Below, piece by piece: positions 1 to 25,741 of a stretch of DNA of 55,938 nt. Under the pieces are notes generated by a model. The model saw nothing but the letters and a program-made list of their open reading frames with translations. It was not told the DNA's origin and ran no database searches. Source of the DNA: Polyangiaceae bacterium (GTDB lineage Bacteria > Myxococcota_A > Polyangia > Polyangiales > Polyangiaceae); contig JBNKBE010000031.1 in assembly GCA_050287085.1 (NCBI GenBank), positions 1 to 55,938 on the forward strand. Reading direction: 5' to 3'. A program made the translations under genes and the position numbers. How positions within the stretch are numbered: position 1 is the stretch's first letter; the number at the start of each line of letters is the position of its first letter.

Positions 1-959
1 CGGGCCCGCGGCAACACGGTGCTGATGTGATGTTTCGTCGCGGCCGATCCCGCACAGGCCACGGTGGTGACCCAACGCTCGAGTCCACGAAGACACTCGA
101 CGCCTCTGGACGTCGCAACCACCACCAGATTGCGCCCCGCAGGCGGGAGCAGCACCTGCTCGGGTTCGCGTTGCAACGCAACCCACCCCCCTCCCGCGTC
201 AAAGGTGCGGTCGGCTACGCAGTGGGCTACCTCCGCAAACCAGCGAAGCGCCGCAGGGTCTTGCGCCCGTCCGCGCGGAACACGCTCACAACTGGCCGCC
301 AAGGCACCCGCCAACTCCCGGGCTACGACCTCGCCCTCTGCGGGTGGAGCCACCAGAACAACTCGCGGACTCAAGCACCCGTTCTGCTCAAAGAGCACCA
401 CGTCGCGAACGATACCGTCGAGACAATCAGCATCATAAGCCTCCAGGTACACAACTCCGAAGCCATGGCCGTGTGGCCAGTAGTGGACGCCCGCCGGCAG
501 CTGGCGGGCGATCTTCTCCAGCGTTCCGTCGCTGCCATAAGCGTGAACTTGTTCACCTGGAGCAGGCGTTATCGCCTCGACGAAAGAAAACATCGTAGGG
601 ACCAGCTGGTGTAGCGCCCGCGCCAGAGTTCCTCCCCGACGCGAAACGCGAATCCGCACGTCGCTGCTGGCAGCGAGTCCTAGGGCAATGGCACGCAATT
701 CGGCCACGAAGACATTGCCTGAGAGCACCACCCAAACCCGCGACGAAGGGGTCACGCTAGCGACGAACTGCTGCACCTGAGATGGCTCTGCGTAGGCTTC
801 CAAGCTGCCCGACAGAGCGAGCTCCACACCGGCTTCTGACAGCTCACCCTGTGCCACTAGCTCGCGGCGCAGTGTGCGGCCGAGCTCCCCCGCAGGATGA
901 CTCAGCCCTTGCGCAGCCGCTAGCAGTCGCTGGACTCGCTCGATCGCGGCCGACTTCAT
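1..959 (-). CDS. LuxC-like acyl-CoA/acyl-protein reductase (3'-truncated by window edge)
   Basis: Not in the ORF track because it has no stop in the window. Manual translation from ATG 959, which overlaps the LuxE-like stop as ATGA: MKSAAIERVQRLL...VWVVLSGNVFVAELRAIALGL...VHAYGSDGTLEKI...WPHGHGFG...RDVVLFEQNGCLSPRVV. GN, AYGSD, HGxxxG and QxGCLSP (catalytic Cys, codon 375-377) match the LuxC/ALDH-like reductase pattern. Confidence 0.8.
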   Translation of the reverse strand, partial: MKSAAIERVQRLLAAAQGLSHPAGELGRTLRRELVAQGELSEAGVELALSGSLEAYAEPSQVQQFVASVTPSSRVWVVLSGNVFVAELRAIALGLAASSDVRIRVSRRGGTLARALHQLVPTMFSFVEAITPAPGEQVHAYGSDGTLEKIARQLPAGVHYWPHGHGFGVVYLEAYDADCLDGIVRDVVLFEQNGCLSPRVVLVAPPAEGEVVARELAGALAASCERVPRGRAQDPAALRWFAEVAHCVADRTFDAGGGWVALQREPEQVLLPPAGRNLVVVATSRGVECLRGLERWVTTVACAGSAATKHHISTVLPRA

Positions 960-2074
960 GCGCGCCCCGCCGCGAAAAGTGCTTCGGTGCTCAACGAGCA
1001 GCCGCGAAGCGGCGCACTCGGCGCCCGTCCCAACAGCTTGAGCCCTCCGGCGGTCTGAACGATGCGGTCCTGGGTCAAGACGCGAACCGCGGAGTCGACG
1101 TTGGCCAAGTCGACGAAGGAGGCGAGCCCGGGGGTCCCTGGCGCCACCGGCTGAAGCGACACGGGATCAACTGCGACTACCCGAAGCCACGGCGGTGCTC
1201 GATAGAGGAGGTCCGAGTCGTCGCCGGGAAGCTGATAGAGCTGACTGCTGAGCTCTGTCATGCCGTACTCGAAGCAGATCTCCGGCTCCCCCAAAGCTAT
1301 TCGAAGCGCGGCCCGTAGCTGCTCCACATCGAGCTCTCGAGTCCTGCCCTTATAGCCTCCCGTTGGCATCACCACGCTCCCGGGAGGGAGTCGAAGCGTC
1401 GTACCAGCAAGCGCGTCGAGCAGGTAAACGGCGGCAAATGCGGTCGTCAATAGCAGCACCGGTCGTCCCTCTTGCCACGCACAGCTGACCACCGACCTGA
1501 AACGAGCAAGATCGACCCCGGCCTCGCTCAAACACCAATGCTCGGGGGCTTGGGGCGCGCCGTATTCCCGCATGAACAACTGACACATGAAGGCCAAACT
1601 CGACGCTCGTGCGGGGTGAAAAGGTGGCATCAGGGCCACGACCGTCATTGCCGTGTTGTTCGTTCGGGACCGAAGAAGCCCCCTTTCCGCTCCCAGCACC
1701 GCCAGTTCTTGATAGGTCCTGGTGTCACGCAGCCAGTGTCGCCCGGTCAGCGCCTGCGTCGTACCACTAGTCTGGAAACAAACGTCGGCTAGCGCCACGT
1801 CGAAGCAGAACTGCCGCCCGTAGCGAAACACGTCCACGGGCACCGCAGGAATATCCCCAAGCTCGCGCAGAGCACCGCCATGCGCTGCCACCAGCCGGGC
1901 AAAGCCCGGAATGCATTCTCGTTGGAAGCGGGCGATATCCAGCGCCAGGCACTCAGCCTCCGGCTCAAAGGGCGCTCCAAGCGATGGCATGGACGCGCTG
2001 ACCCGATGTGCGAACGACCGGACGCGCTGATGCAATTGCCGCGAGCGTGCCAGCCGCTCATCGATTTCCGGCAT
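956..2074 (-). CDS. LuxE-like acyl-protein synthetase
   Basis: Motifs FQTSGTT, TGGYKGR, EYGMTELSSQLY, DLANVDS, LGRA..RGCS. Start moved to ATG 2074 (MPEIDERL), which has a GGAGG RBS upstream. Confidence 0.85.
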   Translation of the reverse strand: MPEIDERLARSRQLHQRVRSFAHRVSASMPSLGAPFEPEAECLALDIARFQRECIPGFARLVAAHGGALRELGDIPAVPVDVFRYGRQFCFDVALADVCFQTSGTTQALTGRHWLRDTRTYQELAVLGAERGLLRSRTNNTAMTVVALMPPFHPARASSLAFMCQLFMREYGAPQAPEHWCLSEAGVDLARFRSVVSCAWQEGRPVLLLTTAFAAVYLLDALAGTTLRLPPGSVVMPTGGYKGRTRELDVEQLRAALRIALGEPEICFEYGMTELSSQLYQLPGDDSDLLYRAPPWLRVVAVDPVSLQPVAPGTPGLASFVDLANVDSAVRVLTQDRIVQTAGGLKLLGRAPSAPLRGCSLSTEALFAAGRA

Positions 2075-2090
2075 AGCCACCACCTCCAAC

Positions 2091-3398
2091 TCAATCCGCC
2101 ACTGGGCTTGCCTGAAGAACGGCAGGCGCGACCTCAGCCACCACGTCGCAAAACGCGTCGAGTAGTGCACGCTCAACGATGAGCGGAGGGGTAAGAACCA
2201 ACACGTCGCGCCCGCCCCCGCCGGTCGAAGTGATGAACCCGCGCTCCAGGAGCGCCCCCATAGCCCGACTGGCGGCGCCGGGGCGTGCCCCAAAGTCGAT
2301 CGCCAGCATGAGTCCATGGCCGCGAACCTCAACCCCAAGAGGCGTGAGCACCTCCACCAGACGTCGCTTCCAATACGTCCCGATTTCACGGCTTCGGTCG
2401 ATGAGCTCGAGTTCTTCCAACGCGCGCAAGGTGGCAATAGCGGTGGCGCAAGCCAACGGGGCACCCGCAAACGTGGACGTGTGGACCACCTCTCGTTCCT
2501 GACTCCACGCAGCCATGACCTCTGCCCGCGCCATGGCGGCGCTGACGGGCAAACCTCCCCCGAGGCCTTTGCCAAAGGTAACGATGTCCGGCGCCGCGCC
2601 ACACGCGAGGGCGTAGGAAAACTCACCCGACCTCCCAAGCCCGGTCCAGATCTCGTCAGCGATGACCAGGGCGCCGGCTTCGCGAGCCAGCTCCATGGCT
2701 CGAACCAACACCTCGCGGGCGATCGGACGGACCCCGCCACGACCCAGGACCGGCTCGATCAGCAGTGCGCCCACGTCCCCCCTTGCCAATGCCTGACCCA
2801 AGACGTCCAGTTCCACCTCCGACGAAAGGAAAGGAACCCAACGCACATGAGGATTGAGATGTGATGCAAAGGGCGTCCGGTAGCTCCCTCGCAGACCGCA
2901 GGCAGCAAGAGGACCATACGACAGACCATGGTATGCCCCCTCGACCGCGATCACGGCAGGCTTGCCGGTATACAACAGCGCCGTCTTCAGCGCTGCGGTC
3001 ACGGCGTCAGCGCCACTTTGCCCGAGGATCCCCTGGTGCGGCGCCGCGGGGAAACGCGCCGTGAGCTGCTCCAACAACGCGATACGCGCATCGGATGCGA
3101 ATAGGTCGCCCATCGACTGCAGCAAGCGCTCGCTCTGTACCGCCAGGCTTCTGACAACGACGGGATGACTATGTCCAAGCAACAACGACCCGAAGCCGGC
3201 GGCCAGATCGACAAAGCGATTGCCATCGACATCCCACACGTTGCAGCCGCTGGCCCGTGCGAACACGATGCTAGGTACTCCTCGACTACCCGCGCTCACT
3301 CGGGGTCCCATCGGCGCACTACACCGTCGCGCCTTGCTGAGCCAGGTACGCGAATTGTCACCCGGTAGGCGACTGACAACATGCGGCAGCTGTTGCAT
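2091..3398 (-). CDS. Class III PLP-dependent aminotransferase (ArgD/GabT-like)
   Basis: DVDGNRFVDLAAGFGSLLLGH, AYHG, IADEIWTGLGRSG, PDIVTFGKGLGGG (PLP Lys), STFAG. Start taken as ATG 3398. Confidence 0.9.
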   Translation of the reverse strand: MQQLPHVVSRLPGDNSRTWLSKARRCSAPMGPRVSAGSRGVPSIVFARASGCNVWDVDGNRFVDLAAGFGSLLLGHSHPVVVRSLAVQSERLLQSMGDLFASDARIALLEQLTARFPAAPHQGILGQSGADAVTAALKTALLYTGKPAVIAVEGAYHGLSYGPLAACGLRGSYRTPFASHLNPHVRWVPFLSSEVELDVLGQALARGDVGALLIEPVLGRGGVRPIAREVLVRAMELAREAGALVIADEIWTGLGRSGEFSYALACGAAPDIVTFGKGLGGGLPVSAAMARAEVMAAWSQEREVVHTSTFAGAPLACATAIATLRALEELELIDRSREIGTYWKRRLVEVLTPLGVEVRGHGLMLAIDFGARPGAASRAMGALLERGFITSTGGGGRDVLVLTPPLIVERALLDAFCDVVAEVAPAVLQASPVAD

Positions 3399-3788
3399 TG
3401 CACTTCGCTTGCCACAAAGGGCAACGCCCGCCAAGCCCGTTGCACGGCGCTCATCATAGGACTGGCAGCGGGCCCGACCCCCACCTTGATGGACAGTCGG
3501 TCCGGCACTTACCCGACCGGGTTGAGCCAAGTCCCAAATCCCGGTCCCGACTAAACCGTTGCCTTCGCTGCCCGCACGCAGTCATCCCCAAAGCGGTACT
3601 GCAACCGGCCCCCCGAAACCGAACCCCTCCCACCGGCCGAACCCAAAGCGCGGCGAGCGAGCAAGCGCCCTCCCCGCTCCTCCGCTCAAAGCTTGGGCCG
3701 ACCCAATGCGATGCATTTTTGCCAAGGTTCCAATGAAACCGCCTGGGGCAAAACGGGCGCCGGCAAGCTCAAGTCTGCCAACGAAAGC

Positions 3789-4682
3789 TCAGCACACGCG
3801 ATTTCGTCCGCCGCGCTTCGCCTCATACAGACGGTCGTCAGCGCGCTGGATGAGCTCGACAGCGCCGTCGTCCGGCTGAAGCACCGCGCAGCCCATCGAG
3901 ATCGTCACGGGAATGCGCTCACCTTGGAACACGAACTCATGCTCCTCAACACGCTGTCGCACGCTCTCTGCCAGAGCCTGAGAGCCCGAAAGCGTGGTCT
4001 CGGGGAGAACTATCGTGAACTCTTCGCCGCCGTAGCGTGCGAAGATCTCGTCGCGCCGGATGCGGGTTTTCACCGTGTCGGCGAGCTCTCGCAGAACGTA
4101 GTCGCCCGCCAGATGACCAAAGTGGTCATTGATACGCTTGAAAAAGTCGATATCAAACATCAACGCTGCCAGCGGTCTTTCGTGACGGCGAGCTCGCGTG
4201 ATCTCCCGGTCTAGCTCGTCAAATAGGAAGCGCTTGTTGTTTATCTGCGTCAGACCATCGACAATGGTCATGCGATAGATTTCTTCGTAGTACTTGGCTT
4301 CCGCGTCGGCGCCCGACAAGTACTTGAGAATTGTTGGGCCGATCTTGATCCGGTCGCCGTTGCGCAACTCGACGGGTTCGTGGATCTGCTCTTCGTTGAT
4401 GTAGGTGCCGTTGGTGGAATGCGCGTCGACCACAACCCATGCACTGGAGCGACGCTCGAAATAGGCGTGACTGCGAGACACCGAGTCACCTTCGAGCACG
4501 ATATGGCTATCGGCCCCACGCCCCACACACACCCGCGGTTGATCCAGAATGAATCGCTTTCCGAGCAGGTTGTCTTCCTTGGAATAGATCACCACCAGGC
4601 AGTCGTTCTCCGAAGACGGCTCGGGCGGCGCGGGCTGGTTAACGGTGGTAACCCGCGTCTTTTCGTCGTCGAAGTCGTTCAC
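3789..4682 (-). CDS. FHA-domain diguanylate cyclase (FHA-GGDEF)
   Basis: FHA motifs VGR, SVSRSHA, STNGT. GGDEF motifs DGLTQINN, DIDFFKRINDHFGHLAGD, RYGGEEF, LYEAKRGGRN. Confidence 0.92.
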   Translation of the reverse strand: MNDFDDEKTRVTTVNQPAPPEPSSENDCLVVIYSKEDNLLGKRFILDQPRVCVGRGADSHIVLEGDSVSRSHAYFERRSSAWVVVDAHSTNGTYINEEQIHEPVELRNGDRIKIGPTILKYLSGADAEAKYYEEIYRMTIVDGLTQINNKRFLFDELDREITRARRHERPLAALMFDIDFFKRINDHFGHLAGDYVLRELADTVKTRIRRDEIFARYGGEEFTIVLPETTLSGSQALAESVRQRVEEHEFVFQGERIPVTISMGCAVLQPDDGAVELIQRADDRLYEAKRGGRNRVC

Positions 4683-5194: not shown

Positions 5195-7105
5195 TCATTC
5201 GAGCGGAACGTCAATACCGCTGATGCGCATCAACCGAAGGGCATTGCCGCTCTGGACCGGCCCAGGATGAAGTCGGTAGTCAAAGGTCATCGCGTCGCCG
5301 ACGACCGTCTCGCGCAAATGCACCTGTCTTACGCGAGGGGTAAGTTCAGCGGACAATTCGCAAAGGCCACTGTCGTGAGTCGACACCGCCCCCAACGCCC
5401 CCGCTCGGACCAGTTGGGCCAATACCCATCGTGCCCCGATCTGGCGCTCTCGCGAATTGGTTCCGTGGAGAATCTCATCCAAGAGGAAAAAGACCGGCAC
5501 ATCACCTTGGAGTGAGTCCAGCACCGCCTTCAACTTCTGCACCTCGGCATAGAAGTGGCTAACGCCGGCTTCGAGCGAATCGCTGATGCGCATACTGGAC
5601 CTGAGCGCAACGGGCGACATTCGCAGGCTCGTGGCGCACACCGGGCCACCCGCCAAAGCGAGCGCGATATTCGTCCCCATCGCGCGCAGCAACGTGCTCT
5701 TGCCAGACATATTCGACCCAGTGACGAGCAGCGCCGTGACCTGACCGCCAAGCGACACGTCGTTGCTGACGCGGTGCTCAGCCGCGATCAAAGGATGCCC
5801 TAGACCGACAGCCTCGAAGGCGGCCGGTTCCGAAACCAGCTCGGGCCAACAATACTCCGGATTGTCGTCGGCGAGCCCGGCCAATGATGACAATGCCTCG
5901 AGCTCCCCCAATGCGTGAAACCATCCTCGCAACTGTTTGCCAGCACGTCGCTGCCAGGCTTCGAGCCGAAGAATGCAGTGCACATCCCACAGCAACAACG
6001 CGTTGATGAAAGGATAGACCATGCCGTTGTGGCGAAGATCGAAGTATCCGACGATGCGCTCGAAGTCGCGCATCACCCGACTGGGAGGGGCGCCCTCTAT
6101 GCTGCAGAGCGCCCGCTTGAGCTCCGCCAGCCGCGTTGCTTCAACGGGCAGCTGCTCCACCAAATGAAGCATGGGGCCGAAGCGTAGAAAGGCTCCGCGA
6201 GAGCCAGAGACCGCTGCGAACACGGCCCCCACATGCGGGCGGGCCGTGAGCAACACGATCGCCGATAGAACAACCGGCAGCAGCCAGACTACCGGATGCA
6301 GCTGAAGCACCCACGCCGACACGGCAGCGACGCACGTCAGACTGGGGAGTAGCCACGCAGCGAGCACCAGTGGTCGGTTGGTCATGAACTGCACATCCGA
6401 CTCCGCCCAAGCGAGCAGCCCATCGAGGTCCGGAGCTTTGCTGGTGCTGCGTTTCGGCCGAACGGCCACGGCCCTCTCTCCGCCGGGCAGCGGCGGCACG
6501 TCCGTCCAGGCCAGCGCCTCGAGCTCTTGGCGGAATTGTAGCTTCGGGGCAAGCTCGCGCGCCGCAACCTGCCGCTCAGTCGCGACCGGCAGGTCAGCGC
6601 GGTTCATCAGAAATGACGCCAGACGAGCCCGACCGAAGCTGGTGCGCGCCATGCTGACGCGCTGAAACAGCGAGCCCCCACCGAATAGATCGAGATCGCC
6701 GGCGTAGGGATGCACCGGATTGCTGAAGGTTGCCCCGTCGTCGCTCAGCTTCTTCCACTCGCCGCGGGCACGATAGAGCGCCTCGCGATTGACGGCGACC
6801 CAGCGAAGAGCCAGATCTTCATCCCGAATGACGCGAGCGTGGCGCCAAACGAAGTAGGCAAAGAAACAAGCGGCAAGCGCTCCCGCAGTCCCCACCCACA
6901 GTCCACCCGAGCCGAAAATGGCCCAGACCCCGGCGATCGCAGCAATCCCGAAGCTTGCGCCGCGCAGATTCGAGACCCGCGCTGAGCGCGCCGCAAGCTC
7001 TTCGGCGTTGCGGGTGAACTCACGCAGGCGCTCGCGATAGAACTTCGCTCGTGGTGAATCCGATGTTTCCGCTGCAACCTGAGAAGGTGATGTGTCCCCT
7101 CCCAT
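5195..7105 (-). CDS. Membrane-anchored MutS-like ATPase (MutS domain V)
   Basis: N-terminal hydrophobic helices, DLDLFGGGSLFQ, GHPLI, TGSNMSGKSTLLR (Walker A), SHFYAE, LLDEILHGTNS, VSTHD, SGNALRLM. No mismatch-recognition domain is evident. Confidence 0.88.
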   Translation of the reverse strand: MGGDTSPSQVAAETSDSPRAKFYRERLREFTRNAEELAARSARVSNLRGASFGIAAIAGVWAIFGSGGLWVGTAGALAACFFAYFVWRHARVIRDEDLALRWVAVNREALYRARGEWKKLSDDGATFSNPVHPYAGDLDLFGGGSLFQRVSMARTSFGRARLASFLMNRADLPVATERQVAARELAPKLQFRQELEALAWTDVPPLPGGERAVAVRPKRSTSKAPDLDGLLAWAESDVQFMTNRPLVLAAWLLPSLTCVAAVSAWVLQLHPVVWLLPVVLSAIVLLTARPHVGAVFAAVSGSRGAFLRFGPMLHLVEQLPVEATRLAELKRALCSIEGAPPSRVMRDFERIVGYFDLRHNGMVYPFINALLLWDVHCILRLEAWQRRAGKQLRGWFHALGELEALSSLAGLADDNPEYCWPELVSEPAAFEAVGLGHPLIAAEHRVSNDVSLGGQVTALLVTGSNMSGKSTLLRAMGTNIALALAGGPVCATSLRMSPVALRSSMRISDSLEAGVSHFYAEVQKLKAVLDSLQGDVPVFFLLDEILHGTNSRERQIGARWVLAQLVRAGALGAVSTHDSGLCELSAELTPRVRQVHLRETVVGDAMTFDYRLHPGPVQSGNALRLMRISGIDVPLE

Positions 7106-7713: not shown

Positions 7714-7858
7714 CGGGCCGATTCTGGCTAGGGTTGTCCAAAAAGCAAGGGGCACCCCCGCTAAAAGCTTCGCCGCAGTACGACGGTCCCGACGCGATGA
7801 CCTTACAGACCCGTGAGAGTCTGCTACACAGCGACGGCACGTGGGTAGGCAGCCAGCG

Positions 7859-9067
7859 ATGACGCATCCCTTGGAAGACACCAATCTCGTCGTGACGTTC
7901 CTGCAAAGCGTCGGCCGACCGCAGGATGCCTTCTTTTACCTCAAACTGTTCACGGAACTACCCAAGGAGAGCTTCGCGGTCGTGGTCCCGGAGCCGAGGG
8001 TACTCAAGCACATTGCGCTGACCGTGGCCGAGCCCCTGGCGTTCCTCGCCAAACTCGGGTTGCACGTCACGCTGGCCACCGGGTTTTGGGATGAACCGGA
8101 AAGCAGCGTCGACACGCCCCGAGCCATTCAGCAGGGCCTGGCCCCGCTTGGTTTGCGCGCAGCCGTGGTCGACCTGATGCATGATGATGCCGCTTCGCAG
8201 TGCACTCGGTGTGTCCGAGCAGGCATGACGGCAGTGGTGGACCTGCGCCATAGCCGCTCACAGCAGCCCGCCGCAGCGCTCGCGGAATTGACGCAACAGC
8301 TCGGAACGCGGAAGGTCGTGGTCCTGCGCTCGCGCGGGGGACTCGGACCTCACCGTTCCCAATTGCTGCGCCTCACCTCACACCACCAGTTGAACGCGAC
8401 CGCCAGCGGCATTTCGGTCGTTAGTTTGGCCACAGACTACGCGGCGCTACGCTTGCATCCTGCGTTGACGGAGGGTGAGACCCAGTTGCTCGACCGCCTC
8501 CGGGTCCTGCACCGAGACCAGCCCAAGCTCCTGACGAGCGTCACGTCTCCGCTCAATCTCTTCCAGGAGTTGTTCACGATCAAAGGAGCCGGCACGCTGG
8601 TGAAGACCGGCAGCGATATCTTGACGCTCAGCTCCTACCAAGAGGTCGACCGCCCCCGACTGCAGGCTCTGTTGGAGTCGACCTTCGATCGGGCCCTACG
8701 CCCAGCGTTCTTAGCCACCCCACCGCTGAGCCTCCACGTCGAGCGTGACTATCGCGGGGCAGCGATCGTCCACGAAGGTCTCGGTGCAAGCTACCTTACG
8801 AAATTTGCTGTAACTCGGGCAGCCCGCGGAGAAGGCATGGGACGCGACCTATGGGAGGCGCTTCATCCGGCCCATCCGGCCCTCTATTGGCGAGCGCGCG
8901 CCGACAACCCGATCTCAGCTTGGTATCGAACGCTCTGCGACGGCATGCAGCACACCGAAAAATGGATCGTGTTCTGGAGGGGGATCCCCACGGAACGATT
9001 GGCGACGATCATCGATGACGCTTGTGCTCGCGAAGAAGACTTCGAAACGGCCACTGCCTCCAGCTAG
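7859..9067 (+). CDS. N-acetylglutamate synthase/kinase-like protein (degenerate AAK domain + DUF619 NAT domain)
   Basis: N-terminal FLQSVG..FYLKLF, linker ELFTIKGAGTLV, C-terminal YLTKFAV..ARGEGMGRDLW..LYWRARADNPISAWY..CDG..WIVFWRG typical of the vertebrate-like/Xanthomonas NAGS-K NAT domain. Confidence 0.8.
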   Translation: MTHPLEDTNLVVTFLQSVGRPQDAFFYLKLFTELPKESFAVVVPEPRVLKHIALTVAEPLAFLAKLGLHVTLATGFWDEPESSVDTPRAIQQGLAPLGLRAAVVDLMHDDAASQCTRCVRAGMTAVVDLRHSRSQQPAAALAELTQQLGTRKVVVLRSRGGLGPHRSQLLRLTSHHQLNATASGISVVSLATDYAALRLHPALTEGETQLLDRLRVLHRDQPKLLTSVTSPLNLFQELFTIKGAGTLVKTGSDILTLSSYQEVDRPRLQALLESTFDRALRPAFLATPPLSLHVERDYRGAAIVHEGLGASYLTKFAVTRAARGEGMGRDLWEALHPAHPALYWRARADNPISAWYRTLCDGMQHTEKWIVFWRGIPTERLATIIDDACAREEDFETATASS

Positions 9068-10461: not shown

Positions 10462-12930
10462 TCAGCGGCCCAAAGCCTCGGCGCGGTTGATCACGCGGGG
10501 GGTCAGAAAGATCACGAGCTCACTGCGTAGATCGCTGGCCGTACGACGCTGGAATAGTAGGCCAAGCAGTGGGATGTCGCCGAAAAACGGCATCTGGTCG
10601 ACATCGTGCCCCGAGTTGCGAGTGAATATGCCGCCGATAACGGCCGTATGGCCATCAGCTACCAGCAGGTTCGTCTCCGCCTCGCGCTTCAGAATCGTGG
10701 GATCACCCCGCGCTGAGGTTTGGTTGAAGTCAGGCTCATCGCGATTGATCTTCACCGCCATGCTGACGCTGCCATCGGCCGTTACGTGGGGCCGCACCAA
10801 CAATTGTAGCTTGGCTTCCTGGAAGGTCGTCTGAACCCCCTGAGCCGTCACCTGGCTGAAGGGGATCAGCGTACCTTGACTGATCTTTGCCTGGCTGTTG
10901 TCCAAAGTGAGCACCCGAGGACTGGAGAGCACCCGCAACATGCCGTTGGACTCCGCCGCGGAAAGGCGCAGAGCCAGATTGAAATTGCTGTCCACCGATC
11001 CCATGGTGAGACCGATGGCACCACCTTGCCCGGTACCAACCGCCGCAGGTAAGTTAACAGCGAAGTTGGGATTCTGCACCACGGTCTGGAGCGGAGAGAG
11101 ACCCGCTGTCGGCGTATCGCCGTCGCTAGCACCGCCGGCGAGCCCGATGGAGTTCGGGAAAACGAGCCCCGTGGGATTGCCGGTCGCAGGCGTGAAGCTG
11201 GCATCTCCGCCCCACTGAATACCTACGTCGCGAAGGTAGCGGCTCGTGGCCTCAACGATTCTTGCCTCGATGAGCACCTGGGGCGTCTGCGTGTCGAGCG
11301 CACGCGTAAGCTCCTCGACTTGATCGAGATTGCCGGCGACGTCACGCACGATCATGACGTTCGTGCGGCTGTCGACGGCAATGGTGCCGCGACCAGACAG
11401 CAACTCGCGAGCCCGCGCCTGAACGTCGGAGGCCTGGGCGTAGCTCACGGGAATGAGTCGGGTCTCGAGCGAAGCCAACTTGAGCTCTTGCTGCGCGCGC
11501 GCGATGGCCAGCTCTCGCTCTCGCTCGAGCACGTCGAGCGGAGCTACCCGGATGATGTTGCCATGAGCCTGCATACCCAGATCTTTGGATTGCAGCACCA
11601 CGTCGAGCGCTTGATCCCACGGGACGTTGTTCAGCCGAACTGTGACATTGCCCGACACGTCGTCGGACGTGACGATATTCCGCTGTCCGATATCCGCCAG
11701 GAGACGAAGCACATTGTGGATGTCTGCGTCTTTGACGTCCAACGTTGCGCGCCGACCTGAGTAGCGCCCTTTGCTGACCACGCCGGTGGCGGCCGCCGCT
11801 TGGTCTGCAGGAGTGACCACCAAAGCCGAACGACTATCAGCCTCCACCTCCAGGGCAGAGGTGAGCAATGGCCGCGCGCTCTGCACCGGCTCTTCAAAGA
11901 TCGTGCGCACGCGTCGAGCCGTGCGACCGTCATCAGCGATACCAGAAAGCGACGACGGAACATGCCCCTCGAAGAACCGTACGATGAGCTCGCTGCCCTG
12001 CACCCTGAGGTCGAGCTGCACGGTCGGACCGTGCTCGATATCGACCTGAGTCCCTCCTGGTACGCGGTATGACGTGATGCGCTGCACGCCCGATTCGAAC
12101 GCATTGACGTCGAGTACGCGCTGTCGTTCCTCCGCAAGTATCGAGCCTGCGAGCACCAAACGCGTCTTTTCCGCAGAAAGCTTGCGCACCTGCGCGACTG
12201 GGCGCCCATCGGCCTTGACGATCAATCGGTGCTCGTCTCCCAAGCGCTCGAAAGCAACGTCGCTGATGCGATATGCCCCCACCGTATCACGGGGGGCTGG
12301 AACGCCCACCATCCGCTCGGGGATTGACGGCGTACTCTCGGCAGCCGCAGCAAGTGCGGCATCAGGTGCCGCGGCAGCATGGGGCCTCTCCGCACCGGCT
12401 GTCGTTGCCGTCCGCGGCGCAGCCCTCACGACAAGCTGGTTTCCCGAAACGTTGATACTATGCCGAACATCACCCGTGAAGGAAACGATGATGCGAGTGA
12501 GCGGCGCCCCGCTCGAGACGAAGGTCTGCAGCACTGCCCCACCGAAGAGACCGTCACCGCCGTCGAGCGTAGCGGGCGCGCCGACCACGCGCGTCTGGGG
12601 TACATCGATGATCAGTCGCCGCCCCCCAGACTCCGCATGAGCCGTGAAGCTGGGCGAACGGTCGAAGTCGACGACCAACTGCTGCTGCTCGCCCGAGGAC
12701 TGAAAGGCCGCGCCGATCGCTTTGCGAGCGCTTCCTGCGCTGTCTGCGACTTCCGCAGCCGCGACTTCAGCAGCCCAAACTCGCGAACTCATGCCCGAAA
12801 GGCACGTGATAGCCAGGGCGCTAGCCGACCATAACAAGAGCGTAGAGCCCAGAACCGCGCGCCGCGCCGCTCCCGCTGACTTATGCTCATCTCCCAGGCG
12901 ATTTTCTTGACGGTGCAGAGCGAGTTTCAT
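10462..12930 (-). CDS. pilQ: Type IV pilus secretin with N-terminal AMIN domains
   Basis: YSGRRATLDVKDADIHNVLR, VTVRLNNVPWDQALD, QVLIEARIVEA, LSSPRVLTLDN, PFFGDIPLLGLLF, ELVIFLTPR. Last gene of pilMNOP. Start codon uncertain. Confidence 0.95.
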   Translation of the reverse strand: MKLALHRQENRLGDEHKSAGAARRAVLGSTLLLWSASALAITCLSGMSSRVWAAEVAAAEVADSAGSARKAIGAAFQSSGEQQQLVVDFDRSPSFTAHAESGGRRLIIDVPQTRVVGAPATLDGGDGLFGGAVLQTFVSSGAPLTRIIVSFTGDVRHSINVSGNQLVVRAAPRTATTAGAERPHAAAAPDAALAAAAESTPSIPERMVGVPAPRDTVGAYRISDVAFERLGDEHRLIVKADGRPVAQVRKLSAEKTRLVLAGSILAEERQRVLDVNAFESGVQRITSYRVPGGTQVDIEHGPTVQLDLRVQGSELIVRFFEGHVPSSLSGIADDGRTARRVRTIFEEPVQSARPLLTSALEVEADSRSALVVTPADQAAAATGVVSKGRYSGRRATLDVKDADIHNVLRLLADIGQRNIVTSDDVSGNVTVRLNNVPWDQALDVVLQSKDLGMQAHGNIIRVAPLDVLERERELAIARAQQELKLASLETRLIPVSYAQASDVQARARELLSGRGTIAVDSRTNVMIVRDVAGNLDQVEELTRALDTQTPQVLIEARIVEATSRYLRDVGIQWGGDASFTPATGNPTGLVFPNSIGLAGGASDGDTPTAGLSPLQTVVQNPNFAVNLPAAVGTGQGGAIGLTMGSVDSNFNLALRLSAAESNGMLRVLSSPRVLTLDNSQAKISQGTLIPFSQVTAQGVQTTFQEAKLQLLVRPHVTADGSVSMAVKINRDEPDFNQTSARGDPTILKREAETNLLVADGHTAVIGGIFTRNSGHDVDQMPFFGDIPLLGLLFQRRTASDLRSELVIFLTPRVINRAEALGR

Positions 12931-13044
12931 GGCATTGAAGCGGTGGATCATCGAGAGACTACTGGCCCCATGCCGCTGGGGCCAAATAATCCCCACTAAC
13001 GCAGTGGCCTGAGACGAGCCAGCGGGACACCCGCCTCAACCCGT

Positions 13045-13668
13045 TCAGCGATTCTCTTGGTCGTGCAGTGATAAGACACGAGTGGCCATGGGCACGTCCG
13101 GATTCGAAGGGTCCTCGCGAACGAATACGACGTCGCTGTCGCGAATGCGATCCACCTGCCAATGCACGTGGTAGGTGGTCTCCGCACCCACGCCTTGGAC
13201 TCGCTCGGAGCGTCCGACAAGCTGCGAGCGCTTGACCACATGACCCTTGCCCGTCGGGTCGACCAGCATGGCCCGAGCCGGCTGAATCTTGGTGACTACC
13301 GCCACCAACTTGAGCTCATCGAGCGAATATTCCTCGAGTAGGACCTGGCGTTTGGTGCGCACCTCTGCCCGCGCATCCTCAGCAAAAAGGTCCCCATAAG
13401 AACGAAACGGATCGCGACTGCTCTCAGACTCAGAAAAATCCGATTCCTGAAACTCGATCCGAGGTGGCGGTTCCTCGTCGACAGCGCTGGCGCTCGGCGC
13501 CGTCGCATTGGCTCGGCGGGAGTTTGGGCTGGGCGGAGCCGACGCCGCGCTCTCAGCAGAGCTTTGCATCTGGGTAGAGCTCGTTGGCCAAGACGGTTTC
13601 GGGTCTTCGCCACAGGCCATCACGGTCGGCATCAGGCCCAAGGCCACAGCCCAAAATACGCGGCTCAT
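13045..13668 (-). CDS. pilP: Type IV pilus lipoprotein PilP
   Basis: Lipobox VMAC, RDPFRSY, LEEYSLDELKLVAV, AMLVDPTGKGHVV; lies between pilO and pilQ. Confidence 0.88.
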   Translation of the reverse strand: MSRVFWAVALGLMPTVMACGEDPKPSWPTSSTQMQSSAESAASAPPSPNSRRANATAPSASAVDEEPPPRIEFQESDFSESESSRDPFRSYGDLFAEDARAEVRTKRQVLLEEYSLDELKLVAVVTKIQPARAMLVDPTGKGHVVKRSQLVGRSERVQGVGAETTYHVHWQVDRIRDSDVVFVREDPSNPDVPMATRVLSLHDQENR

Positions 13669-14282
13669 CGACCCCTCCGGCGACTCGTATTGTCCTCCTG
13701 CTCCTGCGTGGCCTCCACAGTGGCATGGAACGCCGTGGCCAGCACGATGGCCGTCAGCGGAGCCTCGGAATCGTTCGCCTTCGGGGCGGAGATGGCGATG
13801 TCTTCCATGTTGATGATGCGTTCAAGCTGCCCAACATTGTAGAAGAACTTCGCCAGCTGGTGAAAGCGCCCTCGCAGCTCGAGCTTCATCGGGACGCGTG
13901 AATAGAACTCTTCGGGGATCTCCTCCTGAGGCGTCCAAGCGACCAGTTCAATGCCAACCAGGTTCGCGACGTTCTGCACAGAACTCAAGAACGCCGGGTA
14001 CTCCGTCGTCTCAGGCAGGATCTTGACGAGCTCGCGTCGCGCCTGCTCTCGGGCACTGAGCTCATCCAGATCGTTCTGGTAGGCCAAGACGTCAGCATTC
14101 GCCTTGTCGAGATCTTGGCGTAGGGTCGCATGACGAGCTTGTTCTGCATTGATCTGCGACTGCAGCTCGCTGTGAAAGACCACGTAATACGCGAGCAAGG
14201 GCACGACCAACATCACGCCCCCCAAAGCGAACTTTCCAGCACGCCCTAGTCGAGCAATCGCACTCTTTTTTGCAGCAGCCAT
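13665..14282 (-). CDS. pilO: Type IV pilus alignment protein PilO
   Basis: TM helix plus coiled coil, ILPETTE, FYSRVPMKLELRGRFHQLAKFF..LERIIN. Confidence 0.92.
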   Translation of the reverse strand: MAAAKKSAIARLGRAGKFALGGVMLVVPLLAYYVVFHSELQSQINAEQARHATLRQDLDKANADVLAYQNDLDELSAREQARRELVKILPETTEYPAFLSSVQNVANLVGIELVAWTPQEEIPEEFYSRVPMKLELRGRFHQLAKFFYNVGQLERIINMEDIAISAPKANDSEAPLTAIVLATAFHATVEATQEQEDNTSRRRGR

Positions 14283-14932
14283 CAGTAGCGCACCCGGGTT
14301 TGAAGTTGAAAGTCAACCCACTGCTGCCCGCTGCTACCGTGCTCCGCCGCCGAACGTTTACCCGGAAGGAGCCTCACGTCGCTGAAGTAGCTAGACAGGT
14401 TCATACGGCGAGCAAGCTCACTGACGTCTTCGCCATCACGCGCGAGCCCTGACAACGTCACCAGCCTTTCCTTCTCGATGAAGGAGACAAGCCAAACCTG
14501 ACGGCTATCCCAACTCGGGTTGTACATGGCCAGGGGATTGTTGCGCTGCACGTCTGCCAGCTTCTCTACTGAAACGGTAGGACCGCGGCCACGCGTCATG
14601 ATGCGCGCCACCTCCAGCAGCATCGCAGTTGGCCCCGTTCGGGCGCTTTGCAGCTTGTTGATCGCCTCTTCGCGCGCTCGAAGCACAGCTAGCTTCTTCT
14701 TCACTTCCTCGTGATTGGCCACCTTCGCTTGGGCTGACTTGATGTCTGCCTCAATACTGCGACTCGTTTGCTGCGCATCAGCCAACTCGTTCTGCTTAAC
14801 CGAGTACCAAACCCCCAACGCGACGATCTCCACGGCGAGCAGGCCAAGCACAACCCAGAGCCAAGCATCGCTCCCCTCCGCACGCCCGCGACCATGCGCA
14901 CGCTTGTGAGGCAGCAGGTTGATCCGAATCAC
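14282..14932 (-). CDS. pilN: Type IV pilus alignment protein PilN
   Basis: Hallmark MIRINLLP N-terminus, TM helix, coiled coil, VWL..LSG..SSYFSDV. Confidence 0.95.
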   Translation of the reverse strand: MIRINLLPHKRAHGRGRAEGSDAWLWVVLGLLAVEIVALGVWYSVKQNELADAQQTSRSIEADIKSAQAKVANHEEVKKKLAVLRAREEAINKLQSARTGPTAMLLEVARIMTRGRGPTVSVEKLADVQRNNPLAMYNPSWDSRQVWLVSFIEKERLVTLSGLARDGEDVSELARRMNLSSYFSDVRLLPGKRSAAEHGSSGQQWVDFQLQTRVRY

Positions 14933-15975
14933 GAGCGAACCTCCCGCGTTCTGCGCAGGGCGAGTCCTAGCGCCACGGCCAGCTGATTGCTTCGACGATG
15001 AAGCAATTCGGGACTCACACGGGACTCGACCACGAGATGGTCCGACGGACTCCAGCCCTCAACCGGGATGCGAGCGCGACGCTCGATAGCCGGACCCAAC
15101 GAGGCTAGCGAAGCCGTGCCTCCGCTGAGAAAGATGCGCCCGATTTCGCCGTCACCCGAGGTGGCGAGAAAGAAGTCGAGACTGCGCTGGATCTCAGCGG
15201 CGATAGAGTCCATCACCTGCTCGGCTATCGACAGCACGTTGTCCGGGACGGGGCCGGCGTAGCCGCACTTGAGCTTCTCAGCCTCGTCGAAGCTGACCCC
15301 CAGTTGACGCTCGAGCTCGCGGGTGATGGCATCGCCCCCGCTGGCAATTTCGCGGGTAAAAGCGGAAACGCCGCCCTGCACAACGTTCAGCGAAGACAGC
15401 CCTGCCCCCACGTTGATGAGCGCTACGGTTTGCCCCTCGGGAAATCCGCGCGCGCTCTCAAAGAGGTTTTGGATCGTGAACGCATCGATATCGACGATCA
15501 GCGGCTTGAGGCGAGCGTCTTTCGCCAGCTGAGCGTAGGCCGCGATCTGCTCCTTCTTCGCCGCAACCAGGAGCAGATCCATCTGCCCCTCGTCCTCGCG
15601 TCGCCGAAGCACCTGATAGTCGACCTGAACGTCCTTGATGTCGAAGGGAATATGCTGCTCGGCTTCCCAGTCGATTTGCTCGCCAAGCTCATCGTCGGTC
15701 ATCAACGGAACGCTGATCTTGCGGATGATGACGGTCTGTCCCGATACGCTGAGCGCCACTTCGCGAGAACGAATCCGGGCGTCCTGGAACACACGCCGGA
15801 GCGTCTCCACAACTGCGCCCGCGTCCATGACCTGCCCGTCGACGATTGCGCGATAGGGCAACTTCTCGTAGCCCATCCGCTGCAAACTCAATCCGCGGCG
15901 GGTCTCTCTTATTTGGCAGACCTTGATCGAGCTTGAGCCAATGTCGACCCCGACCAGGTTTCTTCCTTCGCCCAT
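14929..15975 (-). CDS. pilM: Type IV pilus actin-like protein PilM
   Basis: VGVDIGSSSIKV, EAEQHIPFDI, LLVAAKKE, INVGAG, EIQRSLDFF, LSGGTA, AVALGLALR. Confidence 0.96.
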   Translation of the reverse strand: MGEGRNLVGVDIGSSSIKVCQIRETRRGLSLQRMGYEKLPYRAIVDGQVMDAGAVVETLRRVFQDARIRSREVALSVSGQTVIIRKISVPLMTDDELGEQIDWEAEQHIPFDIKDVQVDYQVLRRREDEGQMDLLLVAAKKEQIAAYAQLAKDARLKPLIVDIDAFTIQNLFESARGFPEGQTVALINVGAGLSSLNVVQGGVSAFTREIASGGDAITRELERQLGVSFDEAEKLKCGYAGPVPDNVLSIAEQVMDSIAAEIQRSLDFFLATSGDGEIGRIFLSGGTASLASLGPAIERRARIPVEGWSPSDHLVVESRVSPELLHRRSNQLAVALGLALRRTREVRS

Positions 15976-17477: not shown

Positions 17478-19955
17478 TTACTGCGCTCTGTCGCTACTCG
17501 GCGCCCAAGCAAATGTGCGAGGTCGCAGAGACGAAGCCATGAACACGAGTCGCGTCGCAGTCGGCACGTGCGCGGCAAACTCCCCGGACGCTCCAGCGCG
17601 CCACACAGCCGCTGGGTGTTTCGCCCCCCGGTCCAACTCCAAAACGTCGGCGCACTGTTCGTCCAGCAGTGTCAAAGCTAGGACGTCGGAACTGTCGTGG
17701 ATGGCGGTAGCCACAAACACGCTGCCGTCCGGCCCTACACATATCGCGCCACGCAAGCGACGGGCCCCGGTCTCGTGCGCGCGGGCCGCGATGCTGCCTT
17801 GTTCAACCAACGCGGGCAACTGCACCACCGTGACCGCCTCCGCCAAGGGCGGGAGCTGCCCCGCTGGTGCGAATGAGACCTGACCGTCCTCAATCACCAG
17901 CGAAGGCGTATCGCTGCGCAGCGGAAGACTCGCGTCTTCAGCAAAGGCCAATCCCAAACGCTGCTTGTAAGTCGTCGTCCCAAGCCCAGCAGACAGCAAC
18001 GGACGCGCTCCCGCGGGGAGGTCCCGAATGGGTGCGGCGCGGCCGGCAATCAGCGGCTCGTCTAGACCTGCAACCAAGGCCGCTCGCAGACGCCCCGGGG
18101 CCAAGCGGAGCAATGAAACCTTCAGCTCCCCGTGGCGCTTCTCCCGGAACCGAATCGCCGCTGGCTCCTCGGGCTCGGGCTGCTGCCCCGGACTTGCACG
18201 CCAGGACAAGGCCCCCTCTTGGCCGTCCGGCGCCCCCGCTGTGGCAACATAGAAGAAATCCTTCTCAGACCAATACAGGTGCCGCTCTGGGGGCATGGTC
18301 AACCCTGCAACCGCCGGCAGAGAGCGGGTTTCTTCGTGCATCTCGGGCACCACGCGATGAAAGAAAAAACCCGCATGCCCTGGATTCATATCGAGGTGAA
18401 TCGCGTAGTCACACCCCGCTCGACGCATGCCGCGCGCGAGATCGGCCCCTGTAAGGTGACGGCCGATGCCGTAGAGGATCTGACCCTCGACGGTACGACA
18501 TAAGGCGGAGCGGAGCGTCGCCATGGTGCTCCCCACTAAATGCTCGCCCCACGCCTTTCGCTCCGTTGGATTGGCGGTCCCACCTGCGATGAGCGGCTCC
18601 AGATTCTGACGAAAGGAGGCGACCTCCGGTGGGACCACAGGCAACGACTGCGGCCAAGTCCCGAAACCCACGCGGCCATCGCGAAGCGTGAGCACGGTGG
18701 CGGCCCCGGCCACAGCAGGGACCAGGAGGCGTCCGTTCACCATCATGCCGTAGTCTCCGTGCAGACTCTTGAACCCCCCGTTGAAGGTAGCCACGACTCG
18801 CCGCTGCACCGCCGGATCCCGAGGCAACGCCCCAGAGCCAGGGGGGCCCGTTTTTGGACGCGGTTCGGACGCCCCGCCTTCCATTCCGAGGGTGAGAAAA
18901 CGCATGTCCATGGCGATCAAGTCCAGCGCCGCGTAGGGCCGCTTCGGATCGACACGCAACGAGGTCTGCCGAAAGCGCTCTCTTGGAAAGCCGTCCCAAC
19001 CCACCGAGGGCGTCCGCCACTCCCCCTCGCCCTTCAGCGCCGGAGATACGAGCGGCGTCACGCGGGGCGGCGGCCACGAGAGACGTTCGGAAGACCTCGC
19101 GTCGGAAACCTCGCCCGGAGTGGGCGTCGCCGGCTGCGCCGACCGCGTGGTCTGTTCGCGCACCGCTTCGGCCATGCCAAAGACTCTGCGCTCGAGCCAG
19201 GTGACCGCGCCCGGTCCCACGAAAGCGCGAAGCAGCTCAACCGCCGCTTGGAGCGCAGACGAGCTCCGCAGCGATTGAGGAGAATACTCAACCCCCGCAG
19301 CGACGCCCCCTTCTTGCAAAGCGGCAAAGGACACGCTGGACTTGACTCCCCCTTCATCCGCCAGCCCTACCCCGCCGGATTCGACTCGAAGCTCAGTCCG
19401 ATGCCCCTTCTGGGCGCGGAAGTGCACTCGCCCAACCTGCTCCAGCGTGGGAACACGCAGCCAATCCCACAGCCATCCCAGATCCGTTGGCCCGGGAAAG
19501 AATGCGGCGTCGACGCCAGGTTTGATCAGGGTAGCCCCCTGCGGCTCATCCGCCACGTAGGTCTGAAACGCGGCAAAGCGACCGTCATAACTCAGCTCGC
19601 GTTCGTCACCGAGCGGCGTTTCGGTGATTCGCCCGAGCGCAGCGACCCCCAGCGCCGCGCCTTCCGCCGTCACCCGTACGCGAGCACGGAACACGTCGCG
19701 GGCATCGGTTCCGGCCGGGCGACACAAGAACAGGACACCTCGGCCCCACTGCCAATCGAGTAGCCACCCCAAAGACGGCTCCCAGGCCAACGATTGGGGA
19801 CGCTCACAGGAACTGGCCGCTGCCAGCTGCGCGGCCATTGCATCCGGCTCGCTCGCCACCGGTGCTGCCCCGAGCCGAAGCCCGAGAGCGGCCACCGCAG
19901 CTAGACTGAGGACTCGCCATCGCAGGGCGCGAAGGGACTGCCGCCTCTGCGTCAC
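17478..19955 (-). CDS. Exported protein with two phosphodiester-glycosidase-like (NAGPA/DUF2233-like) modules
   Basis: Signal/TM. First module ATFNGGF, RQNLEPLI, TLRSALC, AIHLDMN. Second module RRLRGAICV..LELDRG. Family assignment is by motif resemblance only. Confidence 0.55.
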   Translation of the reverse strand: MTQRRQSLRALRWRVLSLAAVAALGLRLGAAPVASEPDAMAAQLAAASSCERPQSLAWEPSLGWLLDWQWGRGVLFLCRPAGTDARDVFRARVRVTAEGAALGVAALGRITETPLGDERELSYDGRFAAFQTYVADEPQGATLIKPGVDAAFFPGPTDLGWLWDWLRVPTLEQVGRVHFRAQKGHRTELRVESGGVGLADEGGVKSSVSFAALQEGGVAAGVEYSPQSLRSSSALQAAVELLRAFVGPGAVTWLERRVFGMAEAVREQTTRSAQPATPTPGEVSDARSSERLSWPPPRVTPLVSPALKGEGEWRTPSVGWDGFPRERFRQTSLRVDPKRPYAALDLIAMDMRFLTLGMEGGASEPRPKTGPPGSGALPRDPAVQRRVVATFNGGFKSLHGDYGMMVNGRLLVPAVAGAATVLTLRDGRVGFGTWPQSLPVVPPEVASFRQNLEPLIAGGTANPTERKAWGEHLVGSTMATLRSALCRTVEGQILYGIGRHLTGADLARGMRRAGCDYAIHLDMNPGHAGFFFHRVVPEMHEETRSLPAVAGLTMPPERHLYWSEKDFFYVATAGAPDGQEGALSWRASPGQQPEPEEPAAIRFREKRHGELKVSLLRLAPGRLRAALVAGLDEPLIAGRAAPIRDLPAGARPLLSAGLGTTTYKQRLGLAFAEDASLPLRSDTPSLVIEDGQVSFAPAGQLPPLAEAVTVVQLPALVEQGSIAARAHETGARRLRGAICVGPDGSVFVATAIHDSSDVLALTLLDEQCADVLELDRGAKHPAAVWRAGASGEFAAHVPTATRLVFMASSLRPRTFAWAPSSDRAQ

Positions 19956-24600: not shown

Positions 24601-25741
24601 CGCATGGGTCAAGCTAGTGAGCACACTGGCCGCCGTTGCCCTACTGGACGCGCGTGAACAGCTGAAACTGCGGCGCCAAGCGTTGAAGACGGCACGCGCC
24701 GAGCGCCGTCTTGCCGCATTGGTCGGAGAGCAGCAGAAGCGCCTTGAGGCCGCCGAACAGGAACTCGCCGCGCGGCGCTCTGAGACGCGTTACCGCTACG
24801 CCGGGATCATCGGCCAGAGCGAAGCGATGATGCGCGTGCTGAGACTCGTCGACCGTGTTGCGCCGTCGGAACTACCGGTCCTGGTACTCGGCGAGTCCGG
24901 CACCGGCAAAGAGCTGATCGCGCGGGCTATTCATGAACACAGCCCGCGCGCCGATCTCGCCTTTGTCGCCGAAAACTGTTCCGCCATTCCCGAGCCTCTT
25001 CTGGAGTCGACCCTCTTCGGCCATACGCGCGGCGCCTTCACCGGGGCGACGCGCGATCGGCCCGGGCTTTTTGAACTCGCCGACCGCGGCACACTCTTTC
25101 TCGACGAAGTGGGAGAGATGAGCCTGGCCATGCAGAGCAAACTCCTGCGAGTCCTGGAAACTGGCGAGCTTCGGCGAGTCGGGGGCGAACAGAGCATCCG
25201 CGTCGACGTGCGGGTGATCGGCGCAACCCATCGCGACCTCGCGGCCGCGGTGAAACGCGGTGGCTTCCGCGAAGACCTATTCTACCGCCTCAATGTGGTG
25301 AGCGTCCGGCTCCCGCCTTTGAGAGAGCGAACGTCGGACATAACGCTGCTCGTCGAACACTTCATTCAACGCTACGCCAAACAAGTTCCGCCTCCCGAAC
25401 TGGCTCCGGGTACCTTGTCCGCGCTGGAGCGAGCCGCATGGCCTGGTAACGTACGCCAGCTCGAGAACGCCATCCGCCGGGCGCTGATCCTGTGCGACGA
25501 CCAGCTGCAGCCCCAGCACTTCATGGAACGAGAAGGTCACCTGCGCCCTGAAGGCGACACGCTGCGCGACGCGGTAGACGCCTTGGAACGCGACCTCATT
25601 ACGCGCGCCTTGCGCGAAGCCGCCTTCAACCAAACGCGCGCAGCCGAGCGACTCGGTGTCTCGCGTTTTGGGCTCCAGAAGATGATGCGGCGCCTCGATA
25701 TCGCTCCGGAAAGGCCCGGCCGCTCGCAGCTCGAGCCCTAA
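21608..25741 (+). CDS. Ser/Thr kinase-TPR-GAF-sigma54 enhancer-binding protein fusion
   Basis: Kinase: GAGASGQV, ACK, HGDVKPANI, DYS, GTPRY. Ala/Leu-rich TPR-like middle. GAF: GAERGLLLL, SVLAVPL..GVVYLD. AAA+: GESGTGKE, GAFTGA, LFLDEVGEM, FREDLFYRL, WPGNVRQLEN. Fis-type HTH: NQTRAAERLGVSR. Confidence 0.92.
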   Translation: MGAVSNNDLEPTTELSALDCLEPLGAGASGQVVAGVLDGVAVACKLARPSDAEAPSDGYRRLCEEAFHLALLPSRAAPQLVGLVRVTCPKIQALLELEGPAAGLVMTHAPGRPLSTWLRDLEERARAPLALALARDVGAALSALHELGLAHGDVKPANIVVAPDAAGYRCTLVDYSLCDDGQVRVPRGGTPRYLPESDDLGDGRSRDLLALGLLLLETSVPGASTHPKPASLVRALEDNTPLAASIKRLLGPASLRPSALQLWSAAAPEEDAERRRMRVRQSYLRQRRSELQQHLRARTAPEPALAGTEADWLAPVATLLKSARAHHTPGSRAALQSLSEGAQRDWLMRLLGPGAGDPLPRRSAEALAARLLELADLKPLAAVTSADLEAESPSATRRVWSAWQLALELGHDAVDPWALTCAEMEHARGALPEALILTCASALRRQNELGRAWTLLERERSAAAALQRAMILLRARRFEQAKALLETMAQEPHPKDLEEQLSLRAALLARTHLALGDAALAAAALSTAELGAASCESNAMVALAQGDLAAAEEHVRKGLSLPHDAEQHGRLQALLAHIAQRCGQGLQALEHFTAATAAAARARAVVEEATYLGGVASAAIFLGDIKRALSAAERSLVLLEYLERSAEGARAALTLAVAWQCVGAQVEAARAAQRSLQLAQLGGDDRCQAYARWVLADVDEKSASTHLEAARALLTPAGAADRLRIAARSLRAGHGRAPAELAAVDATAAQTQDVDAALEWWTARARTASEEDLRAVVSAVQRLSHAPTNPDTLGQAALAAARCALRLGDEAADAELRELARRCAQTLLAHCPAQRTATLRSRPWIQDSLIPREEQLSRVQLEELQQLAVTLSERGALRPLLVRIVDAMVRWTGAERGLLLLRAPDGALKIRAARNLGRRDLSEHQRQLSTTLSQRALRERSCVVATDAAGELTDLSESVHALALRSVLAVPLIAQGEAIGVVYLDDRIRTAAFGERELAWVKLVSTLAAVALLDAREQLKLRRQALKTARAERRLAALVGEQQKRLEAAEQELAARRSETRYRYAGIIGQSEAMMRVLRLVDRVAPSELPVLVLGESGTGKELIARAIHEHSPRADLAFVAENCSAIPEPLLESTLFGHTRGAFTGATRDRPGLFELADRGTLFLDEVGEMSLAMQSKLLRVLETGELRRVGGEQSIRVDVRVIGATHRDLAAAVKRGGFREDLFYRLNVVSVRLPPLRERTSDITLLVEHFIQRYAKQVPPPELAPGTLSALERAAWPGNVRQLENAIRRALILCDDQLQPQHFMEREGHLRPEGDTLRDAVDALERDLITRALREAAFNQTRAAERLGVSRFGLQKMMRRLDIAPERPGRSQLEP

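Follow-up and report, generated by a model that had tools for sequence, protein, structure and literature searches.

The window analyzed here is the whole of contig C31 (JBNKBE010000031.1; 55,938 nucleotides) of the 6.2-Mb Polyangiaceae genome GCA_050287085.1, which is 96.8% complete. At its start lies an operon for a class III aminotransferase, a LuxE-like acyl-protein synthetase and a LuxC-like acyl-thioester reductase (together, the triad). This operon probably replaces QueC and QueF in queuosine biosynthesis, converting 7-carboxy-7-deazaguanine (CDG) to preQ1 by way of 7-formyl-7-deazaguanine and skipping preQ0. The three reaction types are proposed by analogy with LuxC/LuxE chemistry, and CDG as the substrate is proposed solely from the distribution of genes among genomes. 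It is also likely that this nitrile-free route to preQ1 is the main one in about four fifths of the sampled genomes of the phylum, and that LuxE/LuxC pairs are general reductases of heterocyclic acids, bioluminescence being one specialization. The features of the operon are as follows.

3398..2091, minus strand: class III (fold-type I) pyridoxal phosphate (PLP) aminotransferase, 435 aa; PF00202, E 8e-80
2083..2087, minus strand: GGAGG ribosome-binding site, within the 16-nt gap (2075-2090) from the aminotransferase stop to the luxE-like start
2074..956, minus strand: LuxE-like acyl-protein synthetase, 372 aa; PF04443, 30.8 bits (cut-off 24.9)
959..<1, minus strand: LuxC-like acyl-thioester reductase, 319 aa present; PF05893, E 1e-16

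A sequence-only reading of this DNA had described three co-oriented, closely linked genes, and their shared strand, the 16-nt gap and the ATGA overlap of the luxE-like and luxC-like genes, read directly in the sequence, are all as it described. The gene identities it assigned were borne out by the profile matches given above, and the catalytic cysteine it noted in the QNGCLSP motif of the LuxC-like protein (Cys195) is intact. The luxC-like gene is incomplete at its 3' end because the window ends where the contig ends. In 46 complete LuxC-like relatives a median of 162 residues follows QNGCLSP, compared with 128 in the window copy, so that about 35 residues are missing at the contig end; no continuation of the gene was found on the other contigs of this genome. 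The best matches of the LuxE-like protein among named relatives are mostly from Polyangiaceae.

The distribution of the triad was determined in 151 genomes of the phylum and in 61 close relatives, with six genomes common to both sets. The luxE-like gene was present in 60 of the 61 close relatives and was detected in 121 of the 151 phylum genomes, 120 of which were counted as carriers; one genome, G202, was counted as negative (E 5e-13, no adjoining aminotransferase gene, separate branch of the tree). The gene almost always occurs in one copy, and a single-contig genome of 1.82 Mb (L098) has it intact. The aminotransferase gene lies within 5 kb of it in 95 of the 120 carriers. For the 17 carriers lacking an aminotransferase match at the threshold, a profile finds the subfamily in 14 (430-584 bits) and luxE-adjacent fragments in three, while the best subfamily score among 15 non-carriers is 361 bits and the GRGG motif of the subfamily occurs in none of the 13 inspected. 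The aminotransferase travels with the luxE-like gene even where the two are unlinked. Conservation of the neighborhood, a check proposed in the sequence-only reading, was found: all three genes occur together in 70 of 84 genome loci fetched, and 55 of the 56 longer LuxE-like homologues include a LuxC domain and are thus LuxE-LuxC fusions. In clustered loci the flanking genes differ between families, and no recurring acyl carrier, thioesterase or tailoring neighbors were found. The triad thus has the distribution expected of a housekeeping pathway. Five metagenome contigs (L187, L194, L201, L223, L237) have the gene order luxE-luxC-aminotransferase, and some of them adjoin a gene for a Cys/Met PLP enzyme or a Gfo/Idh/MocA oxidoreductase.

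QueC and QueF show the mirror image of this distribution. Over the same 151 genomes, QueC was found above its cut-off in none of the 120 carriers but in 28 of the 31 non-carriers, and a strong QueF match in none of the carriers but in 25 of the non-carriers. Tgt is present in all 151 genomes and QueA in 148, QueD/PTPS in 109 of the 120 carriers, and QueE in at least 85 of the 151, a lower bound from a strict threshold that misses QueE even in QueC-positive genomes. QueC, QueF and the transporter YhhQ are all lacking in 66 of the 120 carriers, which nevertheless keep Tgt; other transporter families were not searched. Family f46 comprises three genomes that have the luxE-like gene and lack QueC and a fourth, G190 (93% complete), that has queC-queF and neither the luxE-like gene nor the aminotransferase subfamily, which is a swap of QueC/QueF against the triad inside one family. 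Two sets of QueF candidates in carriers were rejected. The many weak matches cover profile positions 1-60 only, and two that were checked are FolE. Three QueF-like proteins in carriers of family f48 (E about 1e-15) lack the Cys at what is taken here to be its position in the QueF motif. The latter proteins (L132:6118-6774, L133:5653-6231, L134:6154-6735) have an N-terminal extension, and one of their genes adjoins thiC.

The genome of the window itself contains folE, two QueD-family genes, a queE-like gene, tgt, queA, queG and four GUN tRNAs; no match to queC or queF was found in it. Cys153 and Val222 of its Tgt match Cys145 and Val217 of E. coli Tgt, and are taken here to be the pair typical of bacterial Tgt that inserts preQ1; the numbering presumably corresponds to that of Z. 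mobilis. The following literature is relevant to Tgt and to the canonical route. A Cys/Val pair marks the preQ1-inserting bacterial Tgt (PMC3660597), and QueC with QueF takes the carboxyl of CDG to an aminomethyl group via an amide and a nitrile (PMC13740343), which is a net change of acid to amine, as is proposed for the triad.

In the proposed route QueE makes CDG, which the LuxE-like protein is predicted to activate with ATP by adenylation and to hold as a thioester on Cys359. The LuxC-like protein would accept the acyl group on Cys195, reduce it with NAD(P)H and, as predicted, release the aldehyde 7-formyl-7-deazaguanine, which the aminotransferase is predicted to turn into preQ1. Tgt, QueA and QueG would then build preQ1 into queuosine on tRNA. 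By this prediction the triad shares its substrate, its product and its position between QueE and Tgt with canonical QueC/QueF, and ATP activation of the CDG carboxyl would be a first step common to both routes. The enzyme families are unrelated, however, and the predicted intermediates are a thioester and an aldehyde instead of an amide and a nitrile, so that no preQ0 would be formed. 7-Formyl-7-deazaguanine is named as a product of QueF variants (PMC13740343), and AMP-CDG is named in roseomycin synthesis (bioRxiv 2026.04.15.718813). No report tying LuxE/LuxC to queuosine was found in a search of the open literature. The use of LuxE/LuxC and an aminotransferase as a preQ1 route thus appears to be undescribed, although the chemistry itself has precedent.

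The biosynthesis of queuosine is regarded as settled, QueC and QueF being the enzymes by which CDG becomes preQ1 de novo. Should the proposed route be correct, many myxobacteria and related bacteria that are at present taken to depend on an external precursor would be prototrophs, and pathway reconstructions and estimates of which community members supply queuine would change. It would also explain what a large family of LuxE/LuxC pairs without luciferase does, and would make available a reductase and transaminase for heteroaromatic acids that need no carrier.

Judged by their conserved residues, the three enzymes appear to be active. The LuxE-like protein matches LuxE of the PDB (7xc6_E) at E 5e-8 as a single sequence and at E 3e-33 with the family profile. 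It contains the motifs TSGTT and YGMTE, Lys242, Arg350 and a C-terminal RGCS with Cys359; the TSGTT loop, Lys242, Asp336, Arg350 and Cys359 are invariant across 28 LuxE-like sequences. Lys242, Arg350 and Cys359 align with Lys238, Arg355 and Cys364 of Photobacterium phosphoreum LuxE (PDB 7XC6), residues which that enzyme uses (PMC9157457). The protein differs from true LuxE in scoring only 28 bits where the NCBIfam cut-off for LuxE is 550 and in having YGMTE where true LuxE has FNQVE. Its structure model (predicted local distance difference test score 90.1) has a PaaK-type adenylation fold (ANL), and a Foldseek search with it retrieved PaaK-type and aryl-acid adenylating enzymes (template modeling score about 0.6, identity 13-19%), a result that supports the modeled fold and not a substrate. 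An Atlas search with the LuxE-like protein gave LuxE-family clusters only.

The profile of the LuxC-like family matches true LuxC (7xc6_A) at E 1e-32 over a range that spans the catalytic Cys; the 26 alignment rows were chosen by the Cys motif, so that the invariance of this column is by construction. As in LuxC-LuxE of luminous bacteria, a C-terminal Cys of an adenylating enzyme would pass the acyl group to the Cys of an aldehyde dehydrogenase-fold reductase. The operon differs from the fatty acid reductase of lux operons in lacking luxA, luxB and luxD, in its coupling to an aminotransferase and in the frequent LuxE-LuxC fusions. The absence of a luciferase operon, reported in the sequence-only reading for the window, was confirmed over the whole genome: no match to the LuxD family was found, and the single luciferase-like protein, with 45 bits, falls far short of the luciferase alpha cut-off of 600. 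This protein is an ordinary enzyme of the luciferase-like monooxygenase class, encoded on another contig, and 86 related loci gave one weak, partial luciferase-like match (E 0.002). Bioluminescence was rejected because no LuxA/B/D was found.

The final C-terminal segment of true LuxC closes a 40-Å acyl cleft (PMC9157457). In the relatives tested (the window copy is cut) the LuxC-like family profile stops at residue 442 of the 477 of true LuxC; these proteins are shorter and lack the segment that forms the long hydrophobic cleft. The conclusion of the sequence-only reading that the genes form a non-luminescent module from acid to aldehyde to amine is supported, since the catalytic residues are kept, the genes are co-located and LuxE-LuxC fusions are common. 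Of the two products it offered, a fatty amine is disfavored, because the triad is distributed like a housekeeping pathway and as the mirror image of QueC/QueF, and because its LuxC relatives are without the cleft-building segment. The other product, another amine, is retained, most likely as preQ1.

A fatty acid converted through a fatty aldehyde to a fatty amine, as by TamA/TamH or TabE/TabA for tambjamine tails, is therefore highly improbable as the function of the operon. LuxE/LuxC do act on myristate (PMC9157457), routes to dodecylamine by an acyl reductase and a transaminase are known (bioRxiv 2025.08.11.669332), and PigE ranks second among the PDB matches of the aminotransferase. Against this function, the luxE-like gene is conserved, with few exceptions in one copy, in 120 of 151 genomes, small ones included, no recurring acyl carrier, thioesterase or tailoring genes were found in the clustered loci, and no LuxD was found in the genome; a fatty amine would also leave the mirror image of QueC/QueF unexplained. 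The tambjamine enzymes, according to the accounts available, take an activated acid through an aldehyde to a primary amine with a thioester reductase and a class III transaminase, as predicted here, and because tail synthesis uses the same reaction logic the chemistry proposed for the triad is of a known kind. Those enzymes work with acyl carrier proteins and C12 chains in secondary-metabolite clusters, in contrast to the present stand-alone core operon, which has no carrier protein.

The aminotransferase matches PF00202 with 269 bits (cut-off 30.5) and has the PLP lysine, the DE motif and HxxT; Lys277 (PLP), Asp248, His306 and Thr309 are invariant in 27 rows. By its sequence motifs (YHGL, EPxxGRGG) it is a distinct subfamily. 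YHGL replaces FHGR/FSGR of ArgD/LysJ, with Leu159 in place of Arg, Arg220 replaces Glu of GEGG (GRGG in 26 of the 27 rows), and Val401 stands where an Arg would precede PPL. The Arg of FHGR, the Glu of GEGG and the Arg before PPL presumably have a role in carboxylate binding, and their replacement here counts in favor of the preQ1 route. The best NCBIfam and PDB matches are ArgD/LysJ, every one below the cut-off, and the protein falls outside the ArgD, LysJ and GabT omega-amino acid transaminases both by NCBIfam score and by signature residues. These matches are what would suggest an alternative route to ornithine or lysine, from glutamate or aminoadipate through the semialdehyde to the diamino acid. 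Such a route is scarcely credible, given that the Arg of FHGR conserved in ArgD/LysJ is Leu here and that homologues of argB, argC, argH, dapA, dapB, dapF, proA and proB are present in the genome. Steps in polyamine, amino acid, pantothenate and haem synthesis were also considered, and homologues of the standard genes are present for most of them. A missing amino acid, pantothenate, haem or thiamine step was rejected on the same ground, the presence of homologues of the standard genes.

The closest plasmid-borne relatives outside the phylum (28 records; LuxE-like identity 31-34%) occur in Azospirillum, Pantoea, Lactiplantibacillus, Niallia and Pseudomonas. They share the LuxE-like family and the LuxC partner, but the pair is accompanied by a short-chain reductase (SDR) instead of an aminotransferase; of six loci examined, five have a thiamine pyrophosphate (TPP) riboswitch and three have genes for NMT1 or NCS2 transporters. 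The SDR-type relatives nest in the LuxE-like tree as a clade of nine (support 0.999; midpoint-rooted FastTree). The nesting of TPP-linked SDR operons in the family suggests that the LuxE-like family acts on small heterocyclic acids, an SDR leading to an alcohol end and an aminotransferase to an amine end, and lends the preQ1 route indirect support. The window operon has none of the TPP riboswitch, SDR and transporter genes of these relatives. Operons of luxE-luxC-SDR with NMT1 or NCS2 behind TPP riboswitches were seen in L141-L146, L184, L219, L227 and L240, one of them inside a thi operon, and are a candidate acid-to-alcohol thiamine salvage route, separate from the OarX genes as these are described in PMC11223231.

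By extension, the triad might be thought to serve thiamine salvage, an oxidized pyrimidine acid being reduced and aminated to the aminomethyl-pyrimidine. Oxidized pyrimidine acids are candidate salvage substrates (PMC11223231), and the sister operons follow a TPP riboswitch or belong to a thi operon. This function has only a very slender chance of being the right one. The TPP-linked genes branch as a separate subclade in which an SDR takes the place of the aminotransferase, no riboswitch or other Rfam match was found in the window, and thiC, thiG and thiE are present in this genome. ThiE is absent in four of five small-genome carriers tested, which therefore could not use the aminomethyl-pyrimidine product.

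Several observations weigh against the replacement of QueC/QueF by the triad. The sampled genomes are related, so that the mirror pattern perhaps reflects a handful of independent events. The QueE-like and QueD-like proteins of this genome score below the NCBIfam cut-offs. The triad is little linked to que genes: among 86 genome loci screened, queD was near it in one, queE in one, folE in two and folK in five, with tgt and folK near it in one further locus. In 80 metagenome loci the only such neighbors were a single queG and a single yhhQ, the aminotransferase adjoining that queG being of the ordinary type. YhhQ is present in 54 of the 120 carriers, this genome included, and salvage could therefore supply preQ1 in these. 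All 10 genomes of family f48 have the triad and QueE, yet QueD was detected in only one of them, and YhhQ is present in eight. Among the 61 close relatives, QueC passes its cut-off in one, G037, which also has the triad; its queC stands in a queC-queE-queD cassette, no QueF match was found and the genome is 70% complete. The triad was not found in phages or viral contigs, where the search gave seven loci with ordinary aminotransferases and no luxE or luxC.

These observations would suit a different small housekeeping amine, such as a polyamine or part of a cofactor, with the QueC/QueF pattern a by-product of ancestry and queuosine precursors salvaged. In its favor are the relatedness of the genomes, the carriers with YhhQ, QueD undetected in most of f48 and the scarcity of linkage to que genes, and speD and speE were not found in this genome in a single-query search with E. 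coli sequences. Single-query absences are weak in this genome, because tblastn with E. coli YhhQ missed its YhhQ, which was found by a Pfam search. Such an amine is unlikely, since it would not account for the 66 carriers lacking a YhhQ-family transporter as well as QueC and QueF, for the retention of QueD and QueE without a consumer of CDG, or for the within-family swap in G190.

In f48 genomes (e.g. G204, G170, G125) QueE, Tgt and QueA are kept and QueD/PTPS is undetected in nine of 10, which indicates a possible unrecognized QueD replacement. In L101, L102, L107, L113, L138, L162, L202, L218 and L243 a divergently oriented folK gene directly precedes the aminotransferase gene, an arrangement that recurs in several distant families. 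The folK gene had prompted consideration of a FolB bypass, which was rejected, FolB being present in five of five genomes tested.

The remainder of the window contains the following features.

3789-4682, minus strand: FHA-GGDEF diguanylate cyclase, directly upstream of the operon
5195-7105, minus strand: protein with MutS domain V and hydrophobic stretches, no other MutS domains (domain search)
7841-9067, plus strand: protein with an N-acetylglutamate synthase NAT domain; fused acetylglutamate kinase models match its C-terminal half only
10462-15975, minus strand: type IV pilus genes pilM, pilN, pilO and secretin in a single run
17478-19955, minus strand: long open reading frame of 825 aa, without a Pfam match at E 1e-6
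21608-25741, plus strand: protein kinase-GAF-sigma54 activator, 1377 aa
51099-53459, plus strand: long open reading frame of 786 aa, without a Pfam match at E 1e-6

A terminator-like site at 3739-3756 was rejected, its signal being no better than chance. A homologue of the FHA-GGDEF gene occurs in 38 of 46 clustered loci (mostly Polyangiaceae) but is missing from all 20 loci that represent other families of the order; its position beside the operon is probably family-level synteny.

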